The notes under the pieces are model-generated. The model was given only the letters and a program-made list of their open reading frames with translations, was not told where the DNA came from and made no database searches. A DNA stretch of 64,000 bases from Sedimentisphaerales bacterium (GTDB lineage: Bacteria > Planctomycetota > Phycisphaerae > Sedimentisphaerales > Anaerobacaceae): positions 4,000,001 through 4,064,000 of the forward strand of contig OY970194.1 of NCBI GenBank assembly GCA_963708075.1, in the 5' to 3' direction. This document shows, one piece after another, positions 29,037 through 56,481 of this stretch (position 1 is its first letter; every line of letters starts with the position of its first letter). Position numbers and translations under genes: made by a program.

Positions 29037-29963
29037 CTATACCTGCCACATGTCATGGAAGTTGAGAAATTGCCAGGGGTGGGACATGACGAAGGCTTCC
29101 AAGGCGTCGACGAACTGTTGCAGATACGGCTTGTATGCGGTGTTGAGCCGTCCGAGGCCGGCGGGCACGTGGATGATGCACGCCAACTCAATCCGGTAGC
29201 TCGAGAAGCCGGTCTTATGGCTGAAGACAACCGCGATCGGGGTGCCCTGCATGGATGAAAGACGATAGGGACTGACAGGAAAATGTACAGGGGCTCCGAG
29301 GAAAGAGGCTTGCAGTGTGTTCGGGTCATTGCCAAAGACACGATCTGCCATCAATCCGAGGACGTGATTGTCCTTGAGTGCGGCGATCATCTGCAGGACT
29401 CCGCCCATCGGCTGTGCCGGATCGATGATCGAGAACGGCACTTCTCTCCCGGCACAATCGAACCATCTCGGATCGATGTCAGCGGCCTCTTGGTGCATGA
29501 CAATGCTCACCGGGGTTTGAAGGTAGCTGAACGCGGACATTGCCACTTGCCAGCATCCGACGTGGCTGTTGAGGATGATCAGACCCCGGCCCTCATCAAT
29601 CAGCTCCCGCAGGCGCGAACCTTCGTGGAAATCCACCCGCAGGGCGTTGGGCCCGAGCAGACCGAAGACAGCCCGATCGATCAGCGATTCGCCCAAAACT
29701 TCAATCCGGCGGTAATCATGCCACAGCCGCACGAGAGGATTTCGTACCTTGGGGAAACGTCTGTCCAGGTAGTACCTGCACCGGCGACGCACGAACGGGC
29801 GGAGCAGTACATACCATGCGACCACCACATACATGCACACGTAAGCCAGGCGGCGCCCCCCTGCGCGGATCAGGAAAGCGAAGAATGCAAACTGCCAGCG
29901 TTTGCCCATGCTTCGTGAATCCCACTGGGCGTTGGAGATGGGGCCCTGAGGTTCAGAACGCAT
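29037..29963 (-). CDS. Lipid A lauroyltransferase-like (LPLAT) acyltransferase
   Basis: 'SHVGCWQ', 'LMADR', 'HPWQFLNFHDMW'. Confidence 0.85.
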   Translation of the reverse strand: MRSEPQGPISNAQWDSRSMGKRWQFAFFAFLIRAGGRRLAYVCMYVVVAWYVLLRPFVRRRCRYYLDRRFPKVRNPLVRLWHDYRRIEVLGESLIDRAVFGLLGPNALRVDFHEGSRLRELIDEGRGLIILNSHVGCWQVAMSAFSYLQTPVSIVMHQEAADIDPRWFDCAGREVPFSIIDPAQPMGGVLQMIAALKDNHVLGLMADRVFGNDPNTLQASFLGAPVHFPVSPYRLSSMQGTPIAVVFSHKTGFSSYRIELACIIHVPAGLGRLNTAYKPYLQQFVDALEAFVMSHPWQFLNFHDMWQV

Positions 29964-31128
29964 GCCGAACCCTCTGCAATGCTCGCGCCATGACATAAGT
30001 CATCAAGCCAAACGCCACTGATAAGACAACCCCGACCGGGACCGATCCGATGCACCAATCCCACAGGCACTCAAGACCCATGTAGCCCAGTTCAAGAAAG
30101 GAGGCGCCGCGGAGACCCTCGATATCCTGAGGGATCAGGAAGCGGCCGAAGCGTATAAAGTGGCCTATCTCAATGCAGATTGCCGGGACCACAGGCGGCA
30201 TACAAAGTTGGCTGGCGGCCACGGCGGCTATGCGGTTCAAGCGCAACAACGCGGCGGCCACAAGGATGGCCAACGTGTGGCAGGCGATCAGCGGCACGGC
30301 GCCCAGAAATACGCCAAGTGCGACGGCAAACGCCAGCTCCTGCGGTGTCGCCCGTTCCATCAGCAGAGTCCGGATGGAACGAAGCGGATGCCAGACGGTG
30401 ATCGACGTTCGTGTGCGCGAGTCTGTGACCTGGCGGTGGGGCCAGGGAACCAGGGACCGCACGGTCAGGCGGGTGTTCAGAACCACGAGCCGCAGGTTGT
30501 CCCACAATTTGTGAAAATGGGAACTGCGATGTTCCGGCTTCGGATAGTGCACCTGTACGCCCACCTCGTGCACTTTCGCACCACCCCACAGGGCACGCAC
30601 GACTACTTCCACCTCAAAGGCGTAACGCCGGGATCGGCACGACAGGTGTTCGATCACTGCCAGGGGATAGGCGCGGTATCCGCTCTGGATGTCGTGTACT
30701 CTCGTGCCCGTCTGCAATCGCACCCAGAAATTGCCAAACGCCCGGCCGAACCGGGAACTCGCGGGCACGGTTCCAGAATCGAAATCCCGTACGCCGAGGA
30801 TCAGTGCCTCCGGATGCTCGCGAATCGCCTCGATGATCCTGGGCAAGTCCTCCGGATAGTGCTGGCCGTCAGCATCCAGAGTGATCATGTGTGTGGCCCC
30901 CTGCCGGCGCAGATGATGCGCGGCCGTCTGGATGGCTGCCGCTTTGCCTCGATTGACCTCGTGACGAAGCACCTCCACGGGCAGGTTCGCCAGAAGAGGG
31001 GCGACCGCCGGATGGCTGCCGTCATCCACGATCAGGACTCGCGGATGTGCTTCAAGGCACCGATGGACGACCTCTCTGAGCCGCTCAGGCTGATTGTAGA
31101 CAGGGATGACAACAGCGATCTGCTCCAC
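29953..31128 (-). CDS. GT2 glycosyltransferase fused to a DUF2062 membrane domain
   Basis: 'VIPVYN', 'VDDGS', 'NRGK', 'DADGQH', 'DIQSGYRAYP'; C-terminal 'ELAFAVALGVFLG'. Confidence 0.88.
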   Translation of the reverse strand: MEQIAVVIPVYNQPERLREVVHRCLEAHPRVLIVDDGSHPAVAPLLANLPVEVLRHEVNRGKAAAIQTAAHHLRRQGATHMITLDADGQHYPEDLPRIIEAIREHPEALILGVRDFDSGTVPASSRFGRAFGNFWVRLQTGTRVHDIQSGYRAYPLAVIEHLSCRSRRYAFEVEVVVRALWGGAKVHEVGVQVHYPKPEHRSSHFHKLWDNLRLVVLNTRLTVRSLVPWPHRQVTDSRTRTSITVWHPLRSIRTLLMERATPQELAFAVALGVFLGAVPLIACHTLAILVAAALLRLNRIAAVAASQLCMPPVVPAICIEIGHFIRFGRFLIPQDIEGLRGASFLELGYMGLECLWDWCIGSVPVGVVLSVAFGLMTYVMARALQRVRHAF

Positions 31129-31141
31129 GGAGCCTGCGGCC

Positions 31142-32581
31142 TCACTTTCGTTCTATGATTCGACGGTTAGCACGGGCGAAGGTCAGGAAACTGCCGGCAT
31201 TCGCCAGGAATCGTCGCCAACTGTCGGGGGATTTCCAGAGCATGCTCACGAAGTTCCACAGGGTCTTCGGACGCATATAATAGCGTTTGTAGAACTCGAG
31301 GAATAAACTCTCCAACTGCTCGGCGGTCATCCCGTGGGGCACGAACACCGTATTCATGCAGTCCATCTTCTCCCAGTTCTCCTCGAAGCGGCCTAATGAA
31401 TGGATCTTCTCGTAGAGGGGCGAACCCGGAAAGGGCGTGAACTTGGCGACGTTCAGATCGTCGATGGGCAGCGAGAACACGTACTGCATCGTCCGACGGA
31501 AACTCTGCTCCGTCTCTCCCGGCAGGCCGATCATGAAAAGCCCCTTGACACGGATGCCGGCCTTGTGAATGTCATGGATCGTCCGACTCATCAACTCCAG
31601 ATCCGCGTTCTGGCGGTGTTGCGCCAACAATTCAGGATCGCCCGTTTCAATTCCCAGGCTGATCATCCAGCAGCCCGCTTTCTTCATCAGGACGAGCAGC
31701 TCGCGATCCACGTGCTCGGCCCGCACGGCACAGTTGAAGGTCATCCTCAGGGGCATCTCGATCATCCGCCGACAGAAAGCGACCACGCGATCCCGATTGA
31801 ACGTGAACTGGTCATCGTACAGGTTGATGTGTCGTATCCCAAACTGCTCGTTCAGGGATTGCACGTGCCGGTACAGGTAATCGGCGGAATTGAACCGAAA
31901 GGTCCGCCGAAATACAGAACGATCACAGTAACTGCATTGGTAGGGACAGCCTCGGCTGGAGATGCAACTCGTGTTCGGCGTCCTGGGGTAATTGAAGATC
32001 GGCAACTGGTATCGCTGGGGAAAGCCCTCGATCTTATGATAGGCGGGCAGTGGCAGCGTATCCAGATCCAGCAGGTCTTTCTGAAATCCGGAGAACACGA
32101 CCCGCCCATTGTCCCGATAGACCAGTCCGGCAATGCCCTGGGGACTGCCATCCGCCTCCATAAGGCTTCGCAGTGGAGTCTCCCCTTCTCCAACGACCAC
32201 GGTATCCACCTCGTGGAAGTCCTGGACGATTCTCTCCCGCAAAGCTGAAACGTGCGGTCCCCCAGCGATACAGCAGGTCCCAGGGCTAAGTTCTTTGACC
32301 CGGCGAAAGATGCGGGCCGCATCCAGAAAACCCGCCGTCGTGCACGTTGCCCCCACAAACTGTGGATGGTAGCGGCGCATGTAGTCATCGATCGTCTTAT
32401 CTGAATCCGGGTGGGCAAAGCAGTCGATGATATCCGCACGGAAGCCGTACTGCTCCACGTACGCTGCGATGCCGGCCAGGCCCAATGGCGGCATCAGGTT
32501 GGCCATGCGGGAGATGTCCCGGTCCGCCGCACGTACATCATAGCCCAGCGGGTGAATCAGCAAAATGCGTCGTGTATCCAT
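31142..32581 (-). CDS. B12-binding radical SAM protein #1
   Basis: 'PPLGLA', 'GGPHVS', 'GEGE', SRGCPYQCSYC, 'GIETG', 'FTPFPGS'. Confidence 0.92.
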   Translation of the reverse strand: MDTRRILLIHPLGYDVRAADRDISRMANLMPPLGLAGIAAYVEQYGFRADIIDCFAHPDSDKTIDDYMRRYHPQFVGATCTTAGFLDAARIFRRVKELSPGTCCIAGGPHVSALRERIVQDFHEVDTVVVGEGETPLRSLMEADGSPQGIAGLVYRDNGRVVFSGFQKDLLDLDTLPLPAYHKIEGFPQRYQLPIFNYPRTPNTSCISSRGCPYQCSYCDRSVFRRTFRFNSADYLYRHVQSLNEQFGIRHINLYDDQFTFNRDRVVAFCRRMIEMPLRMTFNCAVRAEHVDRELLVLMKKAGCWMISLGIETGDPELLAQHRQNADLELMSRTIHDIHKAGIRVKGLFMIGLPGETEQSFRRTMQYVFSLPIDDLNVAKFTPFPGSPLYEKIHSLGRFEENWEKMDCMNTVFVPHGMTAEQLESLFLEFYKRYYMRPKTLWNFVSMLWKSPDSWRRFLANAGSFLTFARANRRIIERK

Positions 32582-32611
32582 ACTCAGTCGTCTCCGCCTC
32601 GCTGCAATCCA

Positions 32612-33974
32612 TCAGACTGCATGCGACGGAAAATGAAGCATGCGCTCCCAGAGCAGCCCCTTCCATCCGAAGCCTCGAAGAATCGCCGCCGCGCACTGTC
32701 CCTCATGGGGCGGGAAGATCCGATCGCGCCGGCCCGCCCAGGACTCCGTCACCTGCTGCTCCATCCATGCCTTGTCCACTGCCGGAGAAACATAGTAAAC
32801 GGGCTCCAACAGCGTGTCTGTCTCCCGCAAAAGATGTTCCGCAATAGCGTGCTTGTGAAGAGGCGTCCCCGGATAGATCCGGATTCCCGAGAAGCCAAAG
32901 ACAACGCAACATTCGAGACGAGCGATATTATTGAGCCCGTCCCGAACCGTCGTTGGTGTCTCCTGCGGCCCCCCGAAAATGACAAAATGGGCGGACGCGA
33001 TTTCCATCTGCACGCACATCTGATTCGTCCGCTCGACATCGGCCCATCGGAACGGCTTGCCCATCGCCTCCAACGTGGCGTCCGTCGTGGCATCGGTGCC
33101 AAATTCCACGGCATAGAGAACCGGCTCGCTTGCAGAGCGCCAGGATCTCACGGGTCAGCAGATGAGGCGACATATAGCAAGCCCATTTCACACCAAGCTC
33201 GCGAGCCGCCATTGTCTCGACCAAATCCAGGTACTGTCCCTGAGAGTCGTTGAATATTGAATCGACGAAGAACACGGTATCTACATGAAACTCTCGCTTG
33301 AGCCGTTCCAGATCGGCGATCACCGCCTCAATGTGCCGAGCACGAAACGTCGTGCCCTCCAGTTTCGGATAGGTACAATAGCAGCAATGATAGGGACAGC
33401 CGCGCTTGCTCTGGAGGCCGATGATTCCACTTTTGTCCCAGTAGAACGCTACCAGTGCCGGGTCGAAGCAGGGCGCACGCTGATAGGTTTCGCGTGGTTG
33501 CTGTTGCGTGACGGGCCAGACGGCCGGAAGGGAGCGTCCCTGTGTCACGGCCGCCACGGCATCTACAATCGAGCGTTCCCCCTCTCCCGGCACGGCCATA
33601 TCCGCGCCTACATACTGCCTCACCTCAGGAGGCATCGTCGATACGGCCGCTCCCCCGATAATGACGGGGGCTCGCGTGAAACGCCGTACCGAGGCGACCA
33701 GGTCCTTCGCTTCTTTCAATTCCCAAGCATCCTCGGATCTCACCAAGGAATCGATGCGATCAACATTGCGGATCGACACCGCCACCACCTCCGGGTCGAA
33801 TTCACGGATGGTTTGCCCCAGAAGCTCGGTCTGGCGATCGGCAACCAGCCAGTCGAATTGACGGATCTGATGGCCCGCATCCATCAGGACGCCGGCCACT
33901 GTCGCCATTCCTAAAGGGTAGACCGCGTACGGAGTATCACAGGTATTTGCTGATATGAGAAGGACTCGACTCAT
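32612..33974 (-). CDS. Lipid-biosynthesis-type B12-binding radical SAM protein #2, frameshift near 33119
   Basis: 'YAVYPLGM', 'SIRNVD', KRGCPYHCCYC, 'DSIFN'; continues in 32612-33151 ('VEFGTD', 'FGGPQET', 'GIRIYPGT'). Confidence 0.88.
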
Positions 33975-35242
33975 TTGTCTCCGGATTCCTTGCTTTGAAA
34001 CCGTCTTCTCGTTCGTGGATTGTACCGACGGTAGGTCCCGTCCTCCATTTCGCGCTCGATCACCCGCTGAAACAGCCGTCCCATCCGGAGTTGGTACCCG
34101 GAGTCGGCATAGAAAGTTTTCCAGGCATAGTCATACATCGCCTGCAACTCGTCTACGGACATGCGCTTCGGCCGGAAGACCACCTTGTCGGCGGTGTAAT
34201 CGGCCCAGTTGTTGCTCAAGATCCGCCCTTCTCGCTCCAGTTGCTCGCGAACCGGCGTGTGGGGAAACGGAGTCAGGACCGTGAACTCCGCAACGTCCAA
34301 CCGAATCTCGCACAGAAAATCGACGAGACGCTTGATGGAATCTACGTCATGATCGTCCGTGCCCAGCAGGACCGTGGCTTCCACACCGATCCCGTTGTCC
34401 TGCAGCATGCGAATGCGGTCGCGGATCACATCCGAGGTATCGAATACGGCCTGATACACATACCAGCAACCGGCCTCGGCCGCCAGGCGGACGATCTGCT
34501 CATCGTACAGGATCGGATGCGACACCCATTTCTTCTTCAGCGGCTTGATGGCTTGGAACAGGGACACCAGCCAATCCCGATCTTGCGCGAGAGAATTGTC
34601 AACGATAAAGAGTCGATTATTCTTGATCTGTTCGAACTCCTCGACGACTTTGTCTATCGGACGGGGTCGAAACTGCTTGCCGCCCAGGAAGGCGCTGCAA
34701 CAGGGAAAGCAGTTGAATCGGCAGCCGCGCGAGGCATGCACGAGGTCGACCATTTGGACACCGCGATAGTTGTATAATGCCCGGTCGAGAATATCCCGCC
34801 GGGCCGGCCCGATCCACTCCGTGGGCGGAGGATCGCCCATGAAATCGTACACACGCTTCAGCCGTCCGGCCTTGAGATCGTCGATGACCCGATCAAAACG
34901 CCCTTCGGCTTCTCCCAGGAAGATGGCGTCGGCGTGTTCTGCAACCTCCTCGCTGTGCAGCATCGTGGCAATTCCGCCGAAAATGACGGGCAGGCCTTTC
35001 GATCGAAACGTATCGGCGATCTCGAAGGCCCTTGGAAGCTGGCTCGTCAGCATGACCGAGATCGCCACCAGGTCCACCTCCTCCTCAAAATCGACAGACT
35101 GCACGTTATCGTCTTCGAAGATGATCTCCACGTCGTGCGGCACTGTCGCCGCGAAGACTACCGGCCCGTGGGGCGGCAGATGGAATGGGGTCTGATGCTC
35201 CAGCTTGGGCCACGTCGGATAGATCAGCTTCATCTTTATCAT
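33971..35242 (-). CDS. B12-binding radical SAM protein #3
   Basis: 'LIYP', 'FGGIATML', 'GEAEG', SRGCRFNCFPCC, 'LTPFPHT'. Confidence 0.88.
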   Translation of the reverse strand: MIKMKLIYPTWPKLEHQTPFHLPPHGPVVFAATVPHDVEIIFEDDNVQSVDFEEEVDLVAISVMLTSQLPRAFEIADTFRSKGLPVIFGGIATMLHSEEVAEHADAIFLGEAEGRFDRVIDDLKAGRLKRVYDFMGDPPPTEWIGPARRDILDRALYNYRGVQMVDLVHASRGCRFNCFPCCSAFLGGKQFRPRPIDKVVEEFEQIKNNRLFIVDNSLAQDRDWLVSLFQAIKPLKKKWVSHPILYDEQIVRLAAEAGCWYVYQAVFDTSDVIRDRIRMLQDNGIGVEATVLLGTDDHDVDSIKRLVDFLCEIRLDVAEFTVLTPFPHTPVREQLEREGRILSNNWADYTADKVVFRPKRMSVDELQAMYDYAWKTFYADSGYQLRMGRLFQRVIEREMEDGTYRRYNPRTRRRFQSKESGDK

Positions 35243-35946
35243 TCAGAACCATTCCCATTGCCATGTGTATCGGTCAGGACCTTGCAGGCCAGCCAGACGA
35301 GGTCGGTGGCCTGCTGCGTTCCCCGCGTCAATTCCCGGCCATGCCATTGCCATGAGGCCGCCTCTGAACCTCTGTTCAGCACGAAGAATACTGCCCCGCA
35401 AGGCCCTTCCGGATCGGTGTTCAGCATCTTCGAGTCTACATCGCACCAGCCGGCTACCACTGTCTCACAGAAGCCCCATCGTATCAGATCCAGGGCAGCG
35501 TAAACCCCACCCAGATGTCCGTCTGAATCATCCACGACAAGGCTGGGGCCTGTCAAGCCGAATTGGATGGAGGCTTCGCCAAGCATCGTGCCCGGCAGGG
35601 TGTAGGCAAACAGGTTGGGGCTGGCGAGGGAACCACCTTGGGACGCCACCGTCTCGAAATATGCCAAGTCCGCTTCCTGACAGCCACGCCGTGTGCCTGC
35701 AACCATGCCAATCGTTCGCTTGTGCGTCCACTGATTCAGACCTGCGCTCCTGAGGGCCAGTGCGATCGCCCCAAATCCCGCCTTGGCATAGGAATCGAAC
35801 CGGCCAAATCGGGGGTGCACGACATCCAGGAACAATCTGCTTTTGAGGTTCGGCAGTCGTCCGGACCCGAGCGTGAACATCTCGCCAGGCTGCCCGCTGC
35901 CGACGCCGGAGGGTGTCACCCATCCGATTCCACTGATGTTCACCAT
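35239..35946 (-). CDS. Short non-catalytic ketosynthase (chain-length-factor-like)
   Basis: 'RFGRFD', 'ASPNLFAYTLP', 'FGLTGP'; no active-site Cys; N-terminal domain only. Confidence 0.8.
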   Translation of the reverse strand: MVNISGIGWVTPSGVGSGQPGEMFTLGSGRLPNLKSRLFLDVVHPRFGRFDSYAKAGFGAIALALRSAGLNQWTHKRTIGMVAGTRRGCQEADLAYFETVASQGGSLASPNLFAYTLPGTMLGEASIQFGLTGPSLVVDDSDGHLGGVYAALDLIRWGFCETVVAGWCDVDSKMLNTDPEGPCGAVFFVLNRGSEAASWQWHGRELTRGTQQATDLVWLACKVLTDTHGNGNGSE

Positions 35947-37076
35947 CACGATTCGGCACTCCTTTGCAGGATCAGGGCCGCATTGACACCGCCGAAACCG
36001 GAGTTCGTAGTCAGCAGATAGTCCCCTGAGAACGGTTGCGCCTGCGCCGATACACGTCCTTGCCCACCCGGCTCCGGGGCCCGCAGGCCTACGGTTGGTG
36101 GGATGCACTGATTCTCCAGGCTGCACAACCCCACTATCGTTTCGATTGCCCCGCAAGCGCCCAGAGTGTGCCCTATGGCCCCTTTGATGGAGTGAAACGG
36201 AGGCAATGAGCCAAAAATCGTGGAAAAGGCGGTCACCTCCATGGCATCGTTGTAGACCGATCCGGTGCCGTGGGCATTGATCGCCGCCACGTCAGACGGC
36301 TTCAACCCGGCCCGCTCCAGTGCCTGGCGGACTGCGAGGATCAGTCCTTCGCCCGTTCTCGACGGCGCGGTGATGTGATGGGCATCGGATGCAATGCCCC
36401 AGCCGACGATCCGGCCGAGGCTTCGGCGTTTGGCCTGTCGGCAAGCCCGTTCACTCATCAACAGCAGGCACGCCGCCCCTTCCCCCAACACCAAACCGTC
36501 GCGGTCTACATCGAAGGGACGACACGCCTGTGCAGACAGAGCCTGCAACGCGGAGAATCCGGAGAAGACAAATTCCGAGACGAGATCCAGCCCACAGACC
36601 AGAACCGACTCGACCTCCCCCTGCTGAATCTGCGAAGCTCCCAGCGCCAGGGCGATCGTCGCGGACGCACAAGCCGCATTGATGTTGCAGCGTCGTCCCT
36701 TCACGCCCAACCGATCCGCCACGAGATCCGCCACTTGACAGCCCAGGACGTGGTCCAGCGCCGTCCTTTGTGTACGAACCGCCCACTCCAACTGGTCGAT
36801 GCCTGCTTTCGTTGTTGCAGTGAACAATGTCGCATCGGCCGGAACCGAAGGGGATTCATCGAACAGCATCTCTATCAGCCCGCCCAACCGCGAGCTGTCC
36901 CTCTCGGCATCCAATGCAGCGATGAAACCGGCCACGCTGGATGTATAGCCCTCCGTGGCGAACCGCCGCACAGGGCCAATGCCCGTGTGGCCTGCCAACA
37001 GGCTGCGCCAAAGAGCCTCTCGTCCCATTCCCAGGGACGTCACGACTCGTGTATCCATTACATGGATCGCACTCAC
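35946..37076 (-). CDS. Beta-ketoacyl-ACP synthase
   Basis: NAACASA, NAHGTGS, KGAIGHT (Cys-His-His). Confidence 0.92.
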   Translation of the reverse strand: MSAIHVMDTRVVTSLGMGREALWRSLLAGHTGIGPVRRFATEGYTSSVAGFIAALDAERDSSRLGGLIEMLFDESPSVPADATLFTATTKAGIDQLEWAVRTQRTALDHVLGCQVADLVADRLGVKGRRCNINAACASATIALALGASQIQQGEVESVLVCGLDLVSEFVFSGFSALQALSAQACRPFDVDRDGLVLGEGAACLLLMSERACRQAKRRSLGRIVGWGIASDAHHITAPSRTGEGLILAVRQALERAGLKPSDVAAINAHGTGSVYNDAMEVTAFSTIFGSLPPFHSIKGAIGHTLGACGAIETIVGLCSLENQCIPPTVGLRAPEPGGQGRVSAQAQPFSGDYLLTTNSGFGGVNAALILQRSAES

Positions 37077-37919: not shown

Positions 37920-37926
37920 CGCCACC

Positions 37927-40326: not shown

Positions 40327-40382
40327 CCGTTATCTCAAAGTAATGCACGTCATGGCTACGGTCCTGCGGTCGCGAGGCCTTT

Positions 40383-43763: not shown

Positions 43764-43770
43764 GAACTGA

Positions 43771-44583: not shown

Positions 44584-44616
44584 AGGGTTCTTCTATCCCG
44601 CGCTCGTGGCAGGATC

Positions 44617-47571: not shown

Positions 47572-47699
47572 GGATACCAACCTTGCGACACGAGCATATC
47601 GCCACCATACACGTCTCTGGGGAAAGGGCAATCAAACTCGCACTTCCCATAGAGCCACCAGCCTTTTGTCTGTATTCCGTTTCCGGCCTACCGCCATAG

Positions 47700-47774: not shown

Positions 47775-48806
47775 TCAAGACCCGTGCTCCGTTGTGCGTA
47801 AAGCGAGAACCTCCTTCGGGGAGGACGCCTGCGTATGGTCGCAGAAGAAGTCCCAGATGACCTGGGATACCTCGAATGTCCGAAGCGGATGATCCTGCGG
47901 CAGTCGCGCGATGTTGCGCATGCCCGGCCATGCATGTTCCCAATCATCCAGGATGTGAAGAACGGCCCATGTGCCGCCTGCATCATCCCGCCAAGCCATG
48001 ATGCGTTGCCCCCCTTGCGGGTCATCGCGGACTTCCGGTACAGACGCGCACCCACAGTATCGAGCCCAGAGTCTGACCGACTCGACCACTGAGACATACC
48101 GCCGTCCGCCACTGCGAAGCCCGGGTCCACCCTTAAATGGAACGCTCCTGTCTTCCCGGCCATGAACTGCAATCAGAGGCACCGGGAGTTCCGGCGGTCC
48201 TATCCGGCGTGTAGCTCCCTTCCGGCCTTTTGAACTGCCTATTGAGCCGGCGACGATGCCGACCCCTGCGATGGATTCACAATTCTCCGAGGCAAAACGA
48301 TAGGCGAGCATCGCACCGTTGGAATGGCCAACGACGTAGATGCGCTGCTGATCGATGTGGAGTTCGTTCGAAACGTCGCGAATCACACAGCGCAGGAACT
48401 CTGAATCATCTACGTGATCCATTTCTGCCAGCCCGCAGCAGTGTCCTGCATTCCAGTGCTGCAGAAATCCAAAGAGACCGATTCCGTTGGGATAAGCGAC
48501 CACGAAGCCTTCGCGATCAGCGAGAGCACTATACCCCGATCCTGCCTCCATAGCCTTCGCTGTGCTAAAAGCACCGTGAAGCACGAGGACCAGAGGCCAA
48601 GCCTTTCGCTTGTCGTAGTTCTGAGGAACATGCAGCAAGTAGTCTCGGGCGGACAAGCCGTAATGAAGCCGGGTTGCTCGATAGTACGTACTTGGCGGCG
48701 AAGTCCTGCAGCCGGGCAATATAGCAAGGGCCCCCGCGCAGATCAACATGACATGACAGGGTGAAACTCGTCCGATGTCGTCCATAGCGTCCCCCCGCTG
48801 AGGCAA
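47775..48806 (-). CDS. PHB-depolymerase/LpqC-type esterase, probable lipoprotein
   Basis: 'LVLVLHG', 'WNAGHCCG', GHSNG nucleophile, 'HG.ED..VP', 'HAWPG'. Confidence 0.85.
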   Translation of the reverse strand: MPQRGDAMDDIGRVSPCHVMLICAGALAILPGCRTSPPSTYYRATRLHYGLSARDYLLHVPQNYDKRKAWPLVLVLHGAFSTAKAMEAGSGYSALADREGFVVAYPNGIGLFGFLQHWNAGHCCGLAEMDHVDDSEFLRCVIRDVSNELHIDQQRIYVVGHSNGAMLAYRFASENCESIAGVGIVAGSIGSSKGRKGATRRIGPPELPVPLIAVHGREDRSVPFKGGPGLRSGGRRYVSVVESVRLWARYCGCASVPEVRDDPQGGQRIMAWRDDAGGTWAVLHILDDWEHAWPGMRNIARLPQDHPLRTFEVSQVIWDFFCDHTQASSPKEVLALRTTEHGS

Positions 48807-48905: not shown

Positions 48906-50129
48906 TTACGGGCGAAGCCGCAGAGCCAGACAGGAATTGGTGCCGCCAAATCCAGCCGAGTTGCACAGGACGATGCGGGGCGGGCTATCGAGCCGGTCGG
49001 TCAGGATCCGCAGTTTCTCACTGTATTGGTCAGGCCGCTCGAAGTTGACGTTAGCTGCTGTGAACCCGTTTTCCGCCATCAAAACGCAATACACGGCCTG
49101 AGCGGCGCCGGCCATCCACAGTTCATGCCCAACCATGCCCTTGAGCGAGGCCACCGGCGGACGGCAGGTATCCCCGAAGAGACGGTGGATTCCAATGGCT
49201 TCCACGCCATCTCCGACCGGGGTCCCCGTCGCGTGGGCGCAGACATAACTTACGTCCTCGATTGGGATTCCGGCCTCTCGCACGGCCAGCGTCATCGCCC
49301 GAAACAATCCATCTTCGCAGGGAACCGAGATGTTGGAGCCATCTGAGGAAAAACCATAGCCCAAGACTTCGCCCAGAATAGGAGCTTGACGCTCCTGGGC
49401 CAGGTCGTATCGCTCCAGGACCAGAGCTGCGGCCCCACCGCTGGGAACTAAGCCATCCCGACCTGCATCGAAGGGCCGGCACGCTTGGTGCGGCTCAGAA
49501 GTGTGCGTGGAGAATGCGTCGAGCGCGTCAAAGCTGCACATGGACTGCCAGTTCAGTTCTTGCGCTCCACCACATATGACCCGGTCCTGCCGTCCCAGAC
49601 GTATCAAATCCGCCGCCTGGCCAATAGCATGACCGCCGCTGCTGCATGCGGCACTGAGGGTCCAACAGGCGCCCCGGGTCTTGAACAGGGCAGTCAGATT
49701 CATGGTGATGTTGGAGACCATGGAGCAGAAGACATGGCCGCTGCCTATGACGCTGGTGGTGCGGTGCTGCCTGACAAGATCCACCTGGTCAATCGCGGCC
49801 AGGCAACTGGAGTCGCATCCGAACACCATGCCTGTGCGGTCGTTTTGGAGTTCCTCCGGGTCCAGTCGCGCGTCGCGGACCGCGTCTGCAGCCGCCGCAT
49901 ACGCCTGAACGGCGAAATCCGTCATCGTTCTTCTCGCCTTGCGGTTCAGATAGCGCGTGGCGTCAAAACCCGCAATACGTGTCGTTAGCGGACTGCGAAA
50001 ACCCAAGGCCACTCGCTCGGGGTCGATCTCTACCGCGGATTCACCACGATAGAGTTTTCGGGCGACCGTTTCTCTGTCTGTTCCCAGACAGGAGATAATC
50101 CCGACCCCAGTGATGGCGACTCGGTTCAT
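48906..50129 (-). CDS. Beta-ketoacyl-ACP synthase (FabB-like)
   Basis: SAACSSG, CAHATGT, KGMVGHE. Confidence 0.92.
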   Translation of the reverse strand: MNRVAITGVGIISCLGTDRETVARKLYRGESAVEIDPERVALGFRSPLTTRIAGFDATRYLNRKARRTMTDFAVQAYAAAADAVRDARLDPEELQNDRTGMVFGCDSSCLAAIDQVDLVRQHRTTSVIGSGHVFCSMVSNITMNLTALFKTRGACWTLSAACSSGGHAIGQAADLIRLGRQDRVICGGAQELNWQSMCSFDALDAFSTHTSEPHQACRPFDAGRDGLVPSGGAAALVLERYDLAQERQAPILGEVLGYGFSSDGSNISVPCEDGLFRAMTLAVREAGIPIEDVSYVCAHATGTPVGDGVEAIGIHRLFGDTCRPPVASLKGMVGHELWMAGAAQAVYCVLMAENGFTAANVNFERPDQYSEKLRILTDRLDSPPRIVLCNSAGFGGTNSCLALRLRP

Positions 50130-50170
50130 CTTCACCTCATGACTGTGTTCGCGATTGTGATGGATCGTCG

Positions 50171-50902
50171 CTACATGTAGATCCCGCCGTTGACGCTCAG
50201 GACCTGCCCTGTGATGTACGACGCATCCTCGGAGCACAGGAAGGCCACAACAGCCGCAACTTCTTCACATGTACCGAAGCGGTGCATGGGAATCACCTTG
50301 AGCAAATCGGCCTTTGGCAGATCCTTGGTCATATCCGTCTCAATGAAACCGGGAGAAACCGCGTTGACCAGGACACCACTGCGGGCGACCTCCTTGGCCA
50401 GGGCACGAGTCGCGCCGATCAGACCTGCCTTGGCGGCGGAGTAGTTCACCTGCCCCGGCATGCCGGTCTGGCCGGAGGTCGATACGATGTTGATGATGCG
50501 GCCCCGCTTCTTCTGCATCATCAGGCCTACCACGCGGCTGGTCACATGATAGAAACCATCCAAGCTGACACTGAGCACGTCCTTCCAGTTCTCCTTCGAC
50601 ATCCAGAACAGCAGGCCGTCGCGGTTGATGCCGGAGTTGTTCACCAGCACATATGGACACTGCTCCCCGAGCATTTTCTCCAACGCCTCCTTGGTAGCCC
50701 GCTCGTCGGACACGTCAAACGGCAGAAGTGTGCAATCGCGTCCGGCTTCCCGAACCCGGGCGGCCACGGCCTCGGCGGCCTCGTGATTGCTCTTGTAGTT
50801 CAGCCATATCTCATAGCCATCCCTGGCCAGACGAACAGCAATGGCCGCACCAATGCCTCTGGATGCGCCCGTAATCAAAGCGATACCCTGACCGCTTGCC
50901 AT
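50171..50902 (-). CDS. fabG: 3-oxoacyl-ACP reductase
   Basis: TGASRGIG, NNSG, YSAAK, 'PGFIETDM'; GGAGG SD. Confidence 0.93.
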   Translation of the reverse strand: MASGQGIALITGASRGIGAAIAVRLARDGYEIWLNYKSNHEAAEAVAARVREAGRDCTLLPFDVSDERATKEALEKMLGEQCPYVLVNNSGINRDGLLFWMSKENWKDVLSVSLDGFYHVTSRVVGLMMQKKRGRIINIVSTSGQTGMPGQVNYSAAKAGLIGATRALAKEVARSGVLVNAVSPGFIETDMTKDLPKADLLKVIPMHRFGTCEEVAAVVAFLCSEDASYITGQVLSVNGGIYM

Positions 50903-50986
50903 GAAGCCTCCCGAATGGGCCATTTCATCTTCTATTCCACAGGGTCGATCGTATATGCCACAGGCAGACCCGCCATCAGACTCTCT

Positions 50987-51014
50987 AAGATAGCCAAGAC
51001 GATTTCACTGTCAA
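50987..51014 (-). promoter_or_regulatory. Putative promoter of the fabG arm
   Basis: TTGACA-16-TATCTT. Confidence 0.5.
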
Positions 51015-51263
51015 CACCTTTTGAAGGACATCGCAAAGGTACATGAGGGCAAATGGGGTCTCGACGAAGACGTCCTCGGAAGGCCATGATCATGCTAATT
51101 CAGTGCATATCTGACAAAGTCAGACTATACAGCACCCCGTCGTCTCTGGTAAGCTGCGTTCATGTGATTAGGTCGGCCCTGCTGGATAATCTCAGCACCG
51201 CTCGTGCGTGAGGAATGCACCGGTTGGACTCCGGCCAGTTGATCGTCAGGAGAATTGTTTCTC

Positions 51264-51518
51264 ATGGATATCAAACAGAGACTCAAGCAAGTCATTGTGG
51301 AAGACTTGAATCTTGAGGAAACAACACCCGAGCAAATTCGTGACGATGCGGCCCTGTTTGGAGAAGGGATCGGGCTGGACTCGCTCGATGCGGTAGAACT
51401 GGTGGTTGTTGTAAAGAGGCATTTCGGAGTCGAAATCAAAGACATGACGGAAGGCCGCACGGCATTTGCCTCGATCAGTTCGCTGGCAAAATTCATTGAG
51501 GAACGTATGACGCGATGA
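51264..51518 (+). CDS. Acyl carrier protein 2 (aryl-polyene type)
   Basis: 'LFGEGIGLDSLDAVEL'. Confidence 0.92.
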   Translation: MDIKQRLKQVIVEDLNLEETTPEQIRDDAALFGEGIGLDSLDAVELVVVVKRHFGVEIKDMTEGRTAFASISSLAKFIEERMTR

Positions 51519-52702
51519 TGCAGAGCGACGAGGCGGTTCCCATCACCGGTCTGGGTTGTCTTTGCGCTGCCGGAAGATCGGTCGCGAGACTCACGGAGGC
51601 GCTGTTCGCCGGACGTCGTTGCGTTGCCTGGCGGCAGGTTCGCGGAAACAGTTACCCCGTGTTCCAGTTAGATAGCCATTCTGTTCCTGCCGGGTACTAC
51701 GAGGAGGCCGAGTGCGAGCGGTGCGGCCGACTGGCCATAGCGGCTGCCGACGAGGCACTCACCCATGCCGGTCTGACCGGCGAGCATCTCCAACGCCGTC
51801 GGGTGGGGGTCTGCCTGGGCACCACGGTTGGCAGTGCGATGAATAATGAGACGTTCTACCGCGATTTCCGTGCAGGCCGCATGCCGGGAATTGAGCCGAT
51901 ACGTCGCTATCTGCGGGCCAACCCGGCAATGATGCTCGCACAAGCGTTTGGCCTGACCGGACCATGCCAGACAATCACCAATGCCTGCTCCTCCGGCGGC
52001 GTAGCCATCGGACATGCCGCCCAGTGGGTGCGAGCCGGTCTGTGTGATGTGGCGATTGCCGGCGGAGCCGATATGCTCTGTAACGTCATTCATGCCGGCT
52101 TTCTCTCATTGTTGGTTACAGACACGGAGCCCTGCCGACCGTTTGACCGAAACCGTCGCGGTTTGAATCTCGGCGAAGGGGCCGGCGTCGTCGTACTGGA
52201 GTCAAAACAATCCGTCTGCGAGCGAGACGCTCCGGTCCAGGCGTGGTTGTGCGGGTATGGAAACGCCTCTGATGCGTATCACATTTCTGCGCCGGAGCCC
52301 GGTGGCAGAGGGTTGAGGCGGGCTCTGGAGCAGGCACTGACACAGGCTCATATAGACCCCAAAGATGTCGATTTTATCAACGCCCACGGGACTGCCACGC
52401 CGGAGAACGACCGCGTCGAGGGCCGGCTATTTCCTGATATGTTTCCAGGGGTCCCCTTTGGTTCCACGAAGGGCTTCACCGGTCATACGCTCGGAGCCGC
52501 CGGGGGGATCGAGGCCGTGATCACGATCCTTTGTCTGCGGGAGAAGCGAATCCCGGCGAGCATCGGATTTCACGAGCCGGACCCGGATTTTCTCGGTCAG
52601 CCGGTTGTGGAGAATACGCCGATCGCCGGCCGATATGGACTATCCGACTCCGTTGCGTTTGGCGGGAACAATGTAGCTCTGATTTTTCAGGGGCAATCGT
52701 GA
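51515..52702 (+). CDS. Beta-ketoacyl-ACP synthase (ApeO-like)
   Basis: TNACSSG, NAHGTAT, KGFTGHT. Confidence 0.92.
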   Translation: MMQSDEAVPITGLGCLCAAGRSVARLTEALFAGRRCVAWRQVRGNSYPVFQLDSHSVPAGYYEEAECERCGRLAIAAADEALTHAGLTGEHLQRRRVGVCLGTTVGSAMNNETFYRDFRAGRMPGIEPIRRYLRANPAMMLAQAFGLTGPCQTITNACSSGGVAIGHAAQWVRAGLCDVAIAGGADMLCNVIHAGFLSLLVTDTEPCRPFDRNRRGLNLGEGAGVVVLESKQSVCERDAPVQAWLCGYGNASDAYHISAPEPGGRGLRRALEQALTQAHIDPKDVDFINAHGTATPENDRVEGRLFPDMFPGVPFGSTKGFTGHTLGAAGGIEAVITILCLREKRIPASIGFHEPDPDFLGQPVVENTPIAGRYGLSDSVAFGGNNVALIFQGQS

Positions 52703-53751
52703 CGGAGCCTCATCCTGCAATTATTGGCATCGGTTTAGTGGGCGGTTTTGGCTTGGGCAAGCAGGCCGCGATCGAAGCGCTTCGCGTGGGAGGCAAGCCC
52801 AACGGAACAGTGCCTGTGATGAGCCCATCGGGACAGCGTCAACTGCCCGCCTACCAGGTGGATACGTCGCCTGTTAGCCGCATCGTTGCTCCTGCGGCTT
52901 TGAGACGCATGAACCGATTTGCCAAAATCGCGGTGCTCGGCGCGTCGCTGGCACTGAAGGATGCCGGCTGGAACATCCCTCTCAAACGCGACGACGTCGG
53001 CTTGGTCATCGCCAGCGGGTACGGGGCATCGAAGAGCACCTTCGACTTCCTGGACAGCATGATCGACGGCGAGGGTCAATTCCCCTCGCCTACCCTCTTC
53101 TCCAACTCCGTTCATTCATCGGCCGCCTCACACCTGAGCATTGTATTGGAGCTGGGTGGACCGTGTCTGACAGTCAGCCAGTTCGAGATGTCGACCATCT
53201 CGGCACTGCTGACGGCGCACCAGTGGCTCCAGGATGGCTGCGTGGAAGCGGTCCTGTTCGGCGCGGTCGATGAGGTCTGCCCTGTCCTGGGGTACTGCTA
53301 CGACTGTTTCTTTGAAGCCAACGCCTGCGGGCCCATGGAGCCTTTTGCCTGGGACAGGCAGACGGCCGTCATGGGAGAAGGGGCGGCGTTCTTGCTGCTG
53401 ACGCGACGAACGGATACCGGCAACGCCTATGGTCACGTCGATGGGCTGGCATGGACCCGGAGTCAGGATGTCACAGTCCCTGAAGACAGCCTCCTGGTAC
53501 TCGGGGCTGACGGCCACACCTGCTGTGCCGCCGACTACCGTCGGTTGTCCGAGGCTGCGGCAACTCAAGCCGCCTACGCCCCGGTGTACGGAAGTCTGCC
53601 TGGGGGACAGGCTTTCGATGTAGCCATAGCGGCGGCCGTGGCCGAGCAGGACTCCAGCGGCAGTCGCATCTGTTCCGCCAAATGCGACGCAAATGGAAAT
53701 TGTGGGGTTATCGAATGCACTTTCGATCCAGGGCATCGTGGGCATGCCTGA
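52699..53751 (+). CDS. Non-catalytic KS / chain length factor
   Basis: 'LRRMNRF', 'SPTLFSNSVH', 'SQFEMS' replacing the Cys motif; GTGA overlap. Confidence 0.85.
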   Translation: MTEPHPAIIGIGLVGGFGLGKQAAIEALRVGGKPNGTVPVMSPSGQRQLPAYQVDTSPVSRIVAPAALRRMNRFAKIAVLGASLALKDAGWNIPLKRDDVGLVIASGYGASKSTFDFLDSMIDGEGQFPSPTLFSNSVHSSAASHLSIVLELGGPCLTVSQFEMSTISALLTAHQWLQDGCVEAVLFGAVDEVCPVLGYCYDCFFEANACGPMEPFAWDRQTAVMGEGAAFLLLTRRTDTGNAYGHVDGLAWTRSQDVTVPEDSLLVLGADGHTCCAADYRRLSEAAATQAAYAPVYGSLPGGQAFDVAIAAAVAEQDSSGSRICSAKCDANGNCGVIECTFDPGHRGHA

Positions 53752-54320
53752 CAGGCTTGGTCGAGGTGGTTTTGCTGTCGGGACCCGTCCACGCCAGGAC
53801 AGAGGATTCGCTGGGAGAGAACCTGCTGAACGCTCTTCGCGGCCGGGTGCCGCACGAGACGGCGTTAGGGCTGTATGCCGGCACGGCTTACGATTGGTCG
53901 GACATGAGTTTCTGTCTGGCGAGTTGGCAGGCGCTTTTCGACTATGACGAGATCTGGCCACATCCGGCGCCGGAGGGACTGGGCATCCGTGTGGAAGCCG
54001 ATGCAGGGGTCGCCGTCGGAAGCGAGTTCTCAGGCGAACGTCTGATGGCCTCGGGCAACTTCCTGGCCGTCTATGAGTTTGGCTCCCCAAGAACCTCACG
54101 GATTGTCCCCTACGTGGAAGCGGGAATCGGATTGATCTACACCGACTTTCAGCGAGAGGACCAGGGATGGCGTCTCAATTTCAACCCAGTGGCCGGATTC
54201 GGCGTTCGAATGGGATCGAAATTCATCGTGCTTCGCGCCCATCATCTATCCAACGGCGGCCTGGACGATGACAACCGGGGCATCAATTCAGTCGTTCTCG
54301 GATTCGGCATCTATCTGTAA
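53744..54320 (+). CDS. PagL-like acyloxyacyl hydrolase beta-barrel (start uncertain, possible early frameshift)
   Basis: 'PYVEAGIG', 'HHLSNGGL..DNRGIN' motif, C-terminal aromatic strand. Confidence 0.8.
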
Positions 54321-54497: not shown

Positions 54498-55100
54498 ATG
54501 AAGAAACAAGGATTGTTGGCTCTGTTGCTTGGTTCGATCGTTGTCGCGTGCTGCTCCTGTAAGAGCAACGAGGCATCCAGCGCGCCGAGTGATAGTTCAC
54601 AGACTGTGGCTGCCAGGGCAGACACCGACGTCTACAACAAATACAACGTTCATTACATCTCCGAGAAGGGCAAGAACAAAGCCAGTTATGCGAACTGGAC
54701 CGACTGGCCTGGACATGGCATACTGTCCTACAATTCGAAAATCCGCGTCGATTCTCTCGGGAAGACGATTGATCTGGTGGATGTGAGCACAGGCAAAGTC
54801 ATTGAGATGGAGTTCCATTCCGGGCGGATGGGCATGTCCGCCAAAGAGTACGTCGACCTGATCACGTCACCAACACCCGTCAACTATGAAGGCTTGAGCG
54901 ATGTGGATCGCCAGGGGATTCAGGCCGGAAAAGCCATGGTCGGAATGAGTAAACAAGGCGTGTTAGTTGCCCTGGGCTATCCGGCCAAGCATCAAACACC
55001 ATCCATCGATCAGAACCGCTGGGTCTATTGGAAAGGCCGATTTGAAACCTATGCAGTGGAATTCGACAACGGTGGCAAGGTCGCGTCAATCAGGAAGTAA
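54498..55100 (+). CDS. Lipoprotein with BamE/SmpA-like C-terminal motif
   Basis: AAGGAG SD; Cys lipobox; 'GMSKQGVLVALGYP...WVYW'. Confidence 0.72.
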   Translation: MKKQGLLALLLGSIVVACCSCKSNEASSAPSDSSQTVAARADTDVYNKYNVHYISEKGKNKASYANWTDWPGHGILSYNSKIRVDSLGKTIDLVDVSTGKVIEMEFHSGRMGMSAKEYVDLITSPTPVNYEGLSDVDRQGIQAGKAMVGMSKQGVLVALGYPAKHQTPSIDQNRWVYWKGRFETYAVEFDNGGKVASIRK

Positions 55101-55113
55101 CTCCGGCATCCGC

Positions 55114-55848
55114 ATGCAATGGGTCTACGCGTCGCTTGTGTCTGCCGTTCTGATCGTCACGTCTCATGCAGGTGCATCGAAGGGCCCGGTCGATTCCCCA
55201 CAGTCGCCGCAACTTCTGCGGCTGCTGCGGGAATCCCGGGCCCCTTATCATACCTTTGCCACTCGATTCCATCAGCGCAAGCATCTGGACATCCTCAATG
55301 TGGACTTGGAATCCGAAGGGATGATTTTCTTTCGCCGGCCGGGCTCGGTGCGCTACGAAATTGTCTCTCCGGTGCGGTCTCTCATGATCTACGATGGGAA
55401 GAAGGTCCGCTGCTATGCATTCAGTGAGGGCAAGTGGAAGTTGCTGAACAACCCCGGCGCCACCGCCATCGGGCAGGTCCTGCGACAGATCGGCCGTTGG
55501 ATTCAGGGGGATTTCGACGCCGACCGCAAGATGTTCGAAATCGGTGTCGTGTCCTCTGAGGATGGTGGCGGCTGCATTCACCTGGTGCCTCGCAGCGAAG
55601 CCCTCATGCAGTTCATTCGACGCATCGAAATATATGTCAGGAAGACCTCGGACGACTACTGGGTGAACAGGATCATTATCCGGGAATCGGAGGCGGACAT
55701 GACAGACATGCGGTTCCGCCAGGAATTGCGCGACCAACCGATTCCTGAAGGCACTTTCTCATCCCCTGAGGCGTCCGATGCATGCCAAGCCATGTTTGTG
55801 CAAGAAAAGAGTCCCGATCCCAATGAAACCGAGAAACCGAAATCGTGA
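55114..55848 (+). CDS. LolA-like carrier protein
   Basis: 'FHQRKHL..L...SEG..FF.RPG.VRYE..SP'. Confidence 0.8.
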   Translation: MQWVYASLVSAVLIVTSHAGASKGPVDSPQSPQLLRLLRESRAPYHTFATRFHQRKHLDILNVDLESEGMIFFRRPGSVRYEIVSPVRSLMIYDGKKVRCYAFSEGKWKLLNNPGATAIGQVLRQIGRWIQGDFDADRKMFEIGVVSSEDGGGCIHLVPRSEALMQFIRRIEIYVRKTSDDYWVNRIIIRESEADMTDMRFRQELRDQPIPEGTFSSPEASDACQAMFVQEKSPDPNETEKPKS

Positions 55849-56481
55849 GGAGTGACGCCTGGCTCATTCTGATGGCTCTCTTTCTCGGCGGCTCAGGCTG
55901 TGCATACCAGCAGTCATTCGGAGAGCCGATTGACGATGTGGCCCGTCGAGCGGCTCTGCTCCAGGCATATCCGCGTCCCAATGTCTCCCAGGCAGTCTTC
56001 CGCACCTTGATTCGCTGGGGCAAGCGAGAAGTCTCTCTGACCGAGGTTGTCAAGGCATCTCCCGACGGCGGCCTGTCGGTGGCGGGCATAACGGACATCG
56101 GCAGCACCCTGTACGCGGCTCAGATCGATCCAAATGGGCGAGGGCACATCATTAACAAGTCCATACCCTTCTCGAACCGGTGGCTGCTCGACGGCCTCAT
56201 CGCCGAGTTGCTCATCCCTTGGAATGGGCCGAATGAGAACCTGCCGATTGCACAGACAAGCAGACAACACTTGGGCATTCGTCTGCCAAGAGCAACGCAT
56301 CACCCGCGTGTTCATCTTCGATGGGGCTGGGAGCTGGCAGCAATTCCGCCGGGTCAAAGGCTCTCGCTTACTTAGCCGAGCCTTCCTGGAGTGGGATGGG
56401 CAACCCATTCCAAAGATCATGCGCGTGGACAACACCGCTGAACACTACCAGGTTGTCCGAGAACGAGTCTCAGTCCAGTAG
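55845..56481 (+). CDS. DUF3261-like (LolB-fold) lipoprotein, frameshift near 56238
   Basis: GSGC lipobox; continues in 56134-56481; position after the LolA-like gene as in aryl-polyene clusters. Confidence 0.6.

Follow-up and report, generated by a model that had tools for sequence, protein, structure and literature searches.

The 64,000-nucleotide stretch analyzed here (the window) comprises positions 4,000,001-4,064,000 of the 7.5-Mb, one-contig genome of a Sedimentisphaerales bacterium (Planctomycetota; contig OY970194.1) and carries, at 29037-56481, a cluster of 27 lipid-related genes that probably constitutes one functional unit for an exported polyene lipid, made by a variant of the aryl-polyene-lipid (APEL) pathway. 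The cluster is real and conserved, and on sequence grounds it is probably functional. Its kind has been known since 2009, its planctomycete member is new, and it is neither the Cluster I of anammox bacteria nor a flexirubin cluster.

An earlier account of this DNA, the sequence-only reading, had listed lipid-related gene types that were all recovered at this location by scans with Pfam and NCBIfam profiles. It had described about 26 genes in two divergent arms; the arms stand, and the count is 27 by the listing of open reading frames (ORFs) and the profile scans. Alignment of the six ketosynthase (KS)-type proteins agrees with its tally of four enzymes bearing a Cys-His-His triad and two homologs without the active-site Cys, and no enoyl reductase family appears among the Pfam and NCBIfam matches, again as it had stated. 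Grammbitter et al. define the core ape genes as those for KS (apeO/R), chain-length factor (CLF; apeC), two acyl carrier proteins (ACPs; apeE/F), dehydratase (apeI/P), ketoreductase (apeQ) and transporter (apeM). The proposed assignment to the ape type holds as regards this core, with KS, CLF, two ACPs, ApeI/ApeP, a ketoreductase and a resistance-nodulation-division (RND) transporter all present, while an aryl polyene as product is suggested by the lyase and ligase only.

A preprint on the Xenorhabdus APEL describes an aryl hexaene esterified to N-acetylgalactosamine-phosphate-glycerol, also bearing C26:5 conjugated and saturated chains; it gives roles to ApeD, ApeJ, ApeM, ApeL and ApeN and has ape clusters build two polyene chains on two ACPs. 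With the corresponding cluster apeA-R (Xenorhabdus doucetiae/E. coli CFT073) the window cluster shares a KS, a KS/CLF pair, two ACPs, a ketoreductase, ApeI/ApeP and a thioesterase, together with PlsC-type and lipid-A-type lysophospholipid (LPLAT) acyltransferases, a glycosyltransferase of the ApeJ type, an RND/MMPL exporter, a LolA-like protein and a lipoprotein. It likely also shares the underlying logic, in which a polyene acid is mounted on a glycerol-phosphate-sugar lipid destined for the outer membrane. It differs in having neither the ApeB methyltransferase (no methyltransferase domain occurs among the 27 products in the Pfam and NCBIfam scans) nor an ApeH-type loader, and instead has a methylidene-imidazolone (MIO) ammonia-lyase and a PaaK-like ligase. 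It further adds three B12-binding radical S-adenosylmethionine (rSAM) enzymes, a second KS/CLF pair, another KS, a CrtI-like flavoprotein and a PagL-like protein.

From this gene content we infer the chemical steps and the product as follows. The MIO lyase would deaminate an aromatic amino acid, most likely tyrosine, to give 4-coumarate, a starter that is probable by analogy with the flexirubin FlxA/FlxY pair; the PaaK-like ligase would activate the lyase product, and the acyl group would then be loaded onto an ACP. The KS/CLF pairs, FabG and the ApeI/ApeP dehydratase would extend the chain iteratively on the two ACPs and, because no enoyl reduction occurs in the scheme, a conjugated polyene would result. 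The PlsC and LPLAT acyltransferases and the GT2-DUF2062 glycosyltransferase would attach the polyene chain, and probably another acyl chain as well, to a glycerol/sugar head group, and the MMPL pump, LolA-like protein and lipoprotein would move the finished lipid to the outer membrane. The three B12 rSAM enzymes, with a KS/CLF pair of their own and the CrtI-like flavoprotein, would add tailoring beyond that of classical ape clusters. This presumed radical step may be a methylation or a cyclization; by analogy, C-methylation of an sp2 or unactivated carbon is likeliest, and is the most economical guess because no ApeB-type methyltransferase is present here and because the solved enzyme closest to the TIGR04072 family is the methyltransferase 6wte.

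Conservation, distribution and descent

The whole cluster is gene-for-gene syntenic in three congeners (G001, G007 and G020), at 51-90% amino-acid identity, which excludes chance association. One of its rSAM enzymes (rSAM2) belongs to TIGR04072: its two frame-split pieces occupy adjoining parts of the profile (positions 1-281, 338 bits, and 282-442, 216 bits), and intact orthologs exceed the 360-bit cut-off. This agrees with the sequence-only reading, which had likened the combination of B12-rSAM, CrtI-like and PaaK-like genes to candidate ladderane loci. The same cut-off is passed in nine of 23 other species-level genomes of the genus (501-593 bits) and in 22 of 401 genomes of a phylum sample.

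Across a species-level genome collection, at least 601 stretches match our search patterns and at least 595 of them encode a TIGR04072 relative. The window proteins were compared by tblastn with the best 80 of these at least 595 loci, and the counts given here use the 40 loci of 19 kb or more; the loci end 10 kb from the TIGR04072 marker, and genes for the lyase, ligase, CrtI-like protein and FabG are thus undercounted. LPLAT and the second ACP (ACP2) each recur in 39 of the 40 long loci, the KS of pair B (KS_d) in 38, the thioesterase and the ApeP-like gene in 37 each, GT2-DUF2062 in 35, rSAM3 and MMPL in 34 each, the KS of pair A in 31 and rSAM1 in 26; the complete eight-gene core is found in 25. 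Carriers are labelled Desulfuromonadaceae, Geobacteraceae, Geopsychrobacteraceae, Desulfocapsaceae, Desulfovibrio, Desulfomicrobium, Maridesulfovibrio and Syntrophus, and further Nitrospirota, Omnitrophota, Lentisphaerae, Kiritimatiellota, Holophaga, Cloacimonadales and Hydrogenedentes. They include the isolates Geothermobacter hydrogeniphilus HR-1, Desulfovibrio sp. 7SRBS1 and Maridesulfovibrio sp. FT414, and genes shared with the Geobacter, Desulfuromonas and Desulfocapsaceae loci are 30-74% identical. The family is widespread and typical of anaerobe lineages.

Loci of this kind were described by Rattray et al. 2009 (PMC2649909), whose text, in the portions relevant here, reports type II fatty acid synthesis (FASII) clusters in Kuenenia that combine SAM radical enzymes with phytoene-dehydrogenase-like genes, calls their synteny with Desulfotalea psychrophila 'striking' and notes comparable arrangements in Geobacter and Pelobacter carbinolicus. 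Among the shared genes are those for a glycosyltransferase, a membrane protein and a phenylacetyl-CoA ligase. Gene order is likewise shared between the window and loci of Geobacteraceae, Desulfuromonadaceae and Desulfocapsaceae among the 80 compared, and judged by sequence the window cluster belongs to the same family as the Desulfotalea/Geobacter/Pelobacter FASII-radical SAM clusters, which mining tools label 'ladderane'. Within that family it is set apart by an extra esterase gene and by its host, a planctomycete that encodes a haem-copper oxidase and no detectable CobS. The pertinent part of a metagenome study reports antiSMASH 'ladderane' clusters in Desulfobacterota, Planctomycetota, Omnitrophota, Verrucomicrobiota and others, their function being unknown there. 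The rarity implied by the sequence-only reading is therefore not borne out, given at least 595 stretches with the marker enzyme, an eight-gene core in 25 of 40 long loci and a description dating from 2009. Its statement that no characterized product was known for such a gene set stands: our literature searches turned up no paper naming one, no product name for the rSAM-bearing family, and neither of the terms TIGR04072 and 'lipid biosynthesis B12-binding'.

In a quick maximum-likelihood tree of rSAM3 (61 rows, midpoint root) the window and its three congeners form one clade, with a Shimodaira-Hasegawa-like approximate likelihood-ratio test (SH-aLRT) value of 99. This clade is sister to a Hydrogenedentes locus (SH-aLRT 96), and both belong to a larger group of 39 rows (97), some three quarters of them labelled Thermodesulfobacteriota; the sole other planctomycete locus, G412, pairs elsewhere with Cloacimonadales. 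Because of this placement and the patchy presence within the genus, the data fit horizontal acquisition of the cluster by the planctomycete genus.

Enzyme-level evidence and the probable chemistry of the product

Both putative dehydratase subunits are weakly matched in Pfam (ApeI-like, E 9e-4; ApeP-like, E 0.084). Profiles built from 22 and 24 orthologs instead matched 6qsr, which we take to be the ApeI:ApeP complex, the ApeI-like profile finding chain A (E 1.2e-11) and the ApeP-like profile chain B (E 8.9e-20). The motifs GHFPG and LPHRPPMRLVD are conserved in the ortholog alignments, and His49 is invariant in the ApeI-like proteins. In the MIO lyase the Ala-Ser-Gly triad is intact, and the His of an RSH motif aligns with a His of the tyrosine aminomutase SgTAM that is presumably its substrate-selecting residue. 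Searches of solved structures with the KS proteins did not discriminate (KS_a, 174 versus 172 bits; KS_d, 208 versus 207 bits), and a protein atlas search returned the query protein's own family only.

The lyase, ligase, short-chain reductase and LolA-like protein match the flexirubin models of Bacteroidota (FlxA, FlxY, FlxB and LolA2) best or nearly so, which points to the same mode of aromatic starter supply. As a flexirubin cluster the locus was rejected, all four scores lying below cut-off (FlxA, 479 versus 700 bits; FlxY, 273+159 versus 520; FlxB, 331 versus 340; LolA2, 75 versus 125), and its rSAM genes have no flexirubin counterpart among the NCBIfam matches. Nor does the cluster hold dialkylresorcinol genes (DarA/DarB): none of the 27 products is a ketoacyl-ACP synthase III (KAS III, FabH-like), the type to which the dialkylresorcinol enzyme DarB belongs; the only KAS III-type signal is a 27-bit ACP_syn_III stretch within KS_a.

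Each of the three B12 radical SAM enzymes contains a CX3CX2C motif, in rSAM1 as CPYQCSYC at residue 212 and in rSAM3, which is 58-71% identical across phyla, as CRFNCFPC at residue 174. The best solved relative of rSAM1 is the diol dehydratase AprD4 (100 bits), and the methylases TokK and CysS are also among its closest. For the TIGR04072 family the best is a tryptophan C2-methyltransferase of the B12-dependent TsrM type (6wte; 163 bits, E 6e-47), which methylates an aromatic sp2 carbon; this alignment is best only over stretch 147-372 of the TIGR04072 profile. Methylation is thus put forward for the three enzymes by analogy, as the commonest precedent only.

A bolder version of the radical step, which we think unlikely, is that the rSAM cassette and its own KS/CLF pair perform ring-forming or iterative C-C bond-forming chemistry on the growing polyene and so give rise to a new class of outer-membrane lipid. 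If true, and because cultured bacteria (the three isolates named above) carry the cassette too, work on radical lipid chemistry, now stalled in anammox bacteria, would gain in this family a model that is easier to handle.

The enzymes of the cluster could also be arranged into a route that yields polyunsaturated fatty acids or hydrocarbons without oxygen. The CrtI-like protein and rSAM enzymes would then desaturate a normal acyl chain, and the genes for an aromatic starter would be peripheral. Such a route was proposed for the Kuenenia and Desulfotalea loci in the pertinent part of Rattray et al. (PMC2649909), which also records polyunsaturated hydrocarbons in D. psychrophila. The CrtI-like gene adjoins those for an ACP, a KS and PlsC, and the lyase was seen in no more than 11 of the 40 long loci, a lower bound since it often lies beyond the 10-kb flank. 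The set of ApeI/ApeP, KS/CLF and ketoreductase, however, makes conjugated polyenes without any desaturase; the supposed desaturase, the CrtI-like gene, was found in six of the 40 long loci only. No gene of the cluster is better conserved than the supposedly peripheral lyase, at 86-90% identity inside the genus and 66-74% between phyla. We accordingly rate this route as rather improbable.

Integrity and coherence of the cluster

Three genes are each split between two frames: rSAM2 at 33119, the ligase between 43254 and 43260, and the terminal lipoprotein at about 56240-56250. Three frameshifts within 27 kb, two of them without independent read cover, might signal a decaying remnant, inactive in this strain and working in its congeners. 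A 5'-truncated sulfatase on the right flank would suit such decay, as would the finding that the marker passes its cut-off in only nine of 23 congeners, from which loss would appear common in the genus. We nonetheless hold real decay to be improbable. When contigs from four public runs were compared with the window over 32500-44000, base 33119, the sole testable site, proved to be missing from contigs of runs X1 and X2 (one contig of 416 bases, otherwise identical). Its removal yields an open frame of 453 residues without a stop, the length of the G007 ortholog; for these reasons the break in rSAM2 is an assembly error. The ligase pieces, which cover FlxY positions 2-154 and 153-424, correspond to a single in-frame gene in G007 and G020, and the lipoprotein to one 211-residue ORF in both.

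The cluster is under purifying selection. Ratios of nonsynonymous to synonymous substitution (dN/dS; NG86, against G007 and G020) are 0.04-0.33 in 55 of 57 estimates, two being undefined, and the pieces downstream of the three breaks give 0.14, 0.12-0.13 and 0.17-0.29, within the range of intact genes. Genes are split elsewhere in the assembly as well: a second COX1 copy lies in three frames within 1.25 kb (G000:C1:7205179-7206431) and an HZS_alpha-domain protein in two (C1:5600690-5601000), which together with the result at base 33119 indicates that the assembly carries indel errors. The remaining frameshifts are most likely of this origin, and the cluster is probably intact here, as demonstrated at one of the three break sites.

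Whether the genes serve one product is a separate question, since an ordinary ape cluster might simply lie beside an independent rSAM/KS-CLF lipid module with an unrelated product. The family is modular: all six long loci labelled Desulfovibrio, Desulfomicrobium or Maridesulfovibrio (L048, L063, L099, L103, L105 and L109) have no rSAM1, rSAM3 or KS/CLF pair A, and the same is true of the shorter loci L061, L066 and L106. The six nevertheless keep rSAM2 and the PlsC-ACP-KS block, with the CrtI-like gene in five of them, and rSAM1 is missing from many Nitrospirota and Omnitrophota loci. Against separate systems, the rSAM genes are bracketed by GT2-DUF2062/LPLAT on one side and thioesterase/ApeI/MMPL on the other, in an order kept across phyla, and members of both sets occur together in 25 of the 40 long loci. 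We give such independence little credence, and favor a single APEL-like pathway.

Anammox studies, in the sections bearing on this point, center on Cluster I (KustE3603-3608: amxACP, amxFabZ, amxFabF2, amxFabFmut, a phytoene-dehydrogenase-like gene and a B12 rSAM), said to be exclusive to ladderane producers without direct evidence as yet (PMC10139942), and a 2026 review still lists three unproven ladderane mechanisms. As a match to Cluster I the window cluster was rejected: it is no compact six-gene unit, its order differs, it has no FabZ-family gene, ape genes surround the genes concerned and the host is not anammox-like. Two loci of family f64, also considered as Cluster I, have many long overlapping ORFs, read as a probable effect of high G+C, and no KS gene nearby, so they are not Cluster I; no anammox locus was identified among the loci retrieved from the phylum sample. 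That the window cluster nevertheless specifies ladderanes or ladderane-like cyclobutane lipids outside anammox bacteria, its B12 rSAM enzymes cyclizing a polyene supplied by the KS/CLF and CrtI-like enzymes, is highly improbable: the enzyme types are indeed those of Cluster I (ACP, KS with Cys-less partner, phytoene-dehydrogenase-like flavoprotein, B12 rSAM), the NCBI short name of TIGR04072 is rSAM_ladder_B12 and three KS-type proteins have the two-chain KS entry 9s5h as top solved match (by small margins, the source organism of the entry not being stated), but the analogous genes are dispersed among ape genes, Cluster I has the exclusivity just described, D. psychrophila with its syntenic cluster yielded no ladderanes according to the relevant text of PMC2649909, and the family occurs in many phyla from which the portions of the literature consulted report none.

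Several points weigh against the aryl-polyene-lipid assignment itself. Neither for the locus nor for any member of the family is a product, pigment or transcript on record. The lyase matches histidine ammonia-lyase models as well as it does FlxA, under every cut-off (HutH, 496 bits against 539), and any assignment of the starter unit is therefore tentative. None of the rSAM enzymes reaches the cut-off of a characterized family, and their solved relatives include a diol dehydratase. The ligase frameshift had no read cover in the four runs and the lipoprotein site lay outside the compared stretch, so that either gene could be truly broken. Cobalamin synthase CobS (PF02654) was not found in the genome, as against nine of 14 control genomes in which it was, and the B12 enzymes would for that reason depend on scavenged corrinoid. 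The rSAM3 tree, finally, is a quick version rooted at its midpoint.

Judged by genome content, the family ranks among the larger unsolved lipid pathways of bacteria. The present analysis extends it to a non-anammox planctomycete genus with an aerobic-type oxidase and in which CobS was not found, points to horizontal transfer as the route into that genus and traces the apparent gene breaks at least partly to assembly errors. Knowledge of the family's product is unchanged by the window; of practical use is the list of cultured carriers, in which that product could be sought.

Layout, flanks and host genome

The minus arm (20 genes) begins, in order of transcription, at the FabG/FlxB-like reductase and ends at the lipid-A-type acyltransferase, and the plus arm (seven genes) runs from an ACP through KS, Cys-less KS homolog, PagL-like, small BamE-like and LolA-like proteins to the lipoprotein (Table 1). 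Between the arms (50924-51254) a promoter scan found three sigma-70-like sites where 0.6 were expected, all on the minus strand, a weak signal. Scans of the window against Rfam and for tRNA genes gave no match.

Table 1. The 27 genes of the cluster, with window coordinates and supporting matches
Gene product	Coordinates	Strand	Evidence
Lipid-A-type lysophospholipid acyltransferase (LPLAT)	29037..29996	-	PF03279, 35 bits
GT2 glycosyltransferase fused to DUF2062, ApeJ-like	29953..31128	-	PF00535 + PF09835
B12-binding rSAM1, HpnJ/BchE-like, under cut-offs	31142..32581	-	PF02310 + PF04055; HpnJ 190 bits (cut-off 578)
B12-binding rSAM2, TIGR04072, frame-split	32612..33974	-	Two pieces on TIGR04072
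B12-binding rSAM3, with DUF4070	33971..35242	-	Pfam/NCBIfam
Cys-less KS homolog, CLF-like, pair A	35239..36156	-	PF00109, 31 bits; no active-site Cys
Cys-His-His KS, pair A, AmcF-like	35946..37187	-	PF00109 + PF02801; NF058662 241 bits (cut-off 325); triad present
4HBT/YbgC-type thioesterase, ApeK-like	37073..37624	-	PF13279 + PF03061
ApeI-like hotdog dehydratase subunit, GHFPG motif	37527..37943	-	PF22818; ortholog profile vs 6qsr_A
MMPL/HAE3 RND-type exporter, ApeM-like	37927..40326	-	PF03176 weak; TIGR00921 89 bits, HpnN 88 bits, both below cut-off
ApeP-like hotdog dehydratase subunit, 146 residues, LPHRPPMRLVD motif	40383..40823	-	PF22817; ortholog profile vs 6qsr_B
MIO aromatic amino acid ammonia-lyase; Tyr favored by context, His possible	40820..42418	-	PF00221, 568 bits
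PaaK/FlxY-like aryl-CoA ligase, frame-split	42415..43790	-	Two pieces on FlxY
PlsC-type acyltransferase, ApeD-like	43771..44583	-	PF01553, 74 bits
Acyl carrier protein 1	44617..44958	-	PF00550
Cys-His-His KS, PRK09116-like	44876..46177	-	Pfam/NCBIfam + alignment
CrtI/CrtD-like flavin oxidoreductase	46141..47631	-	PF01593; TIGR02733 61 bits, far under cut-off
PHA-depolymerase-like esterase, variable, probable passenger	47775..48806	-	NF050058 157 bits (cut-off 150)
Cys-His-His KS, FabB-like, ApeR-like role	48906..50237	-	Pfam/NCBIfam + alignment
FabG/FlxB-like ketoreductase	50171..50923	-	NF053542 331 bits (cut-off 340); PF13561
Acyl carrier protein 2 (ACP2)	51255..51518	+	PF00550; NF006617 75 bits (cut-off 70)
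Cys-His-His KS, pair B (KS_d), ApeO-like	51515..52702	+	Pfam/NCBIfam + alignment
Cys-less CLF-like KS homolog, pair B, ApeC-like	52531..53751	+	PF00109 + PF13723; no Cys
PagL-like outer-membrane protein	53682..54320	+	PF09411, 69 bits
Small protein, weak BamE-like C-terminus	54498..55100	+	PF04355 E 0.004; G007 ortholog E 0.002
LolA-like carrier, ApeL-like	54967..55848	+	PF03548 44.5 bits; LolA2_flexi 75 bits (cut-off 125)
Lipoprotein with Cys lipobox, frame-split	55845..56481	+	No Pfam family

The polyhydroxyalkanoate (PHA)-depolymerase-like esterase is probably a passenger gene, since it is absent in G020, relocated in G001 and present in only one of the 80 related loci.

The cluster is flanked by genes for a neutral ceramidase, glycoside hydrolases, a truncated sulfatase, DUF11 proteins and GFO/IDH/MocA proteins. 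The sulfatase (57495-58700, plus strand) is a 5'-truncated remnant at the right edge; it is without the first approximately 112 positions of its Pfam profile, which presumably hold the catalytic formylglycine motif, and no upstream frame supplies them. The neutral/alkaline ceramidase homolog (25597-27900, plus strand; PF04734, 177 bits) adjoins the cluster, and this flank is retained in G007 and in the cluster-less G022. No insertion boundary was found by this comparison: the ceramidase flank occurs in one of five cluster-less genomes (G022), where no similarity to the window extends past it. Farther off, an HNH endonuclease with an AP2 domain (7343-8227, minus strand) and an AAA_14 ATPase (11763-12842, minus strand), in DNA with a G+C fraction of 0.55-0.57, may mark a small mobile or defense-related patch of lower G+C.

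The sequence-only reading had taken the host to be a planctomycete outside the anammox group, and this is upheld by the 7.5-Mb genome, the G+C content of 55-64% across the window, the presence of a haem-copper oxidase (COX1) and the nearest named syntenic locus among the matches listed, L033, which is gene-for-gene syntenic and labelled uncultured Pirellulales bacterium; by these features the host is not anammox-like. PF18582 (HZS_alpha) has six matches in the genome and also matches a Bacteroides control, and is thus not diagnostic; PF13447 (HAO-type multihaem) has none in the genome, and its control matched nowhere either.

A search of the genome for another copy of the cluster gave only housekeeping FabF/FabG genes and scattered paralogs. 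The TIGR04072 profile has 23 matches at E<=0.001. A paralog of the TIGR04072 enzyme at G000:C1:1864275-1865564 (226 bits, below cut-off) has counterparts at E<=1e-60 (213-232 bits) in 16 of 23 congeners, some of them cluster-less. Far from the cluster, two adjacent KS-type genes at G000:C1:965808-968443 are 28-31% identical to the cluster KS proteins. The public runs that best match the stretch are freshwater-sediment metagenomes.

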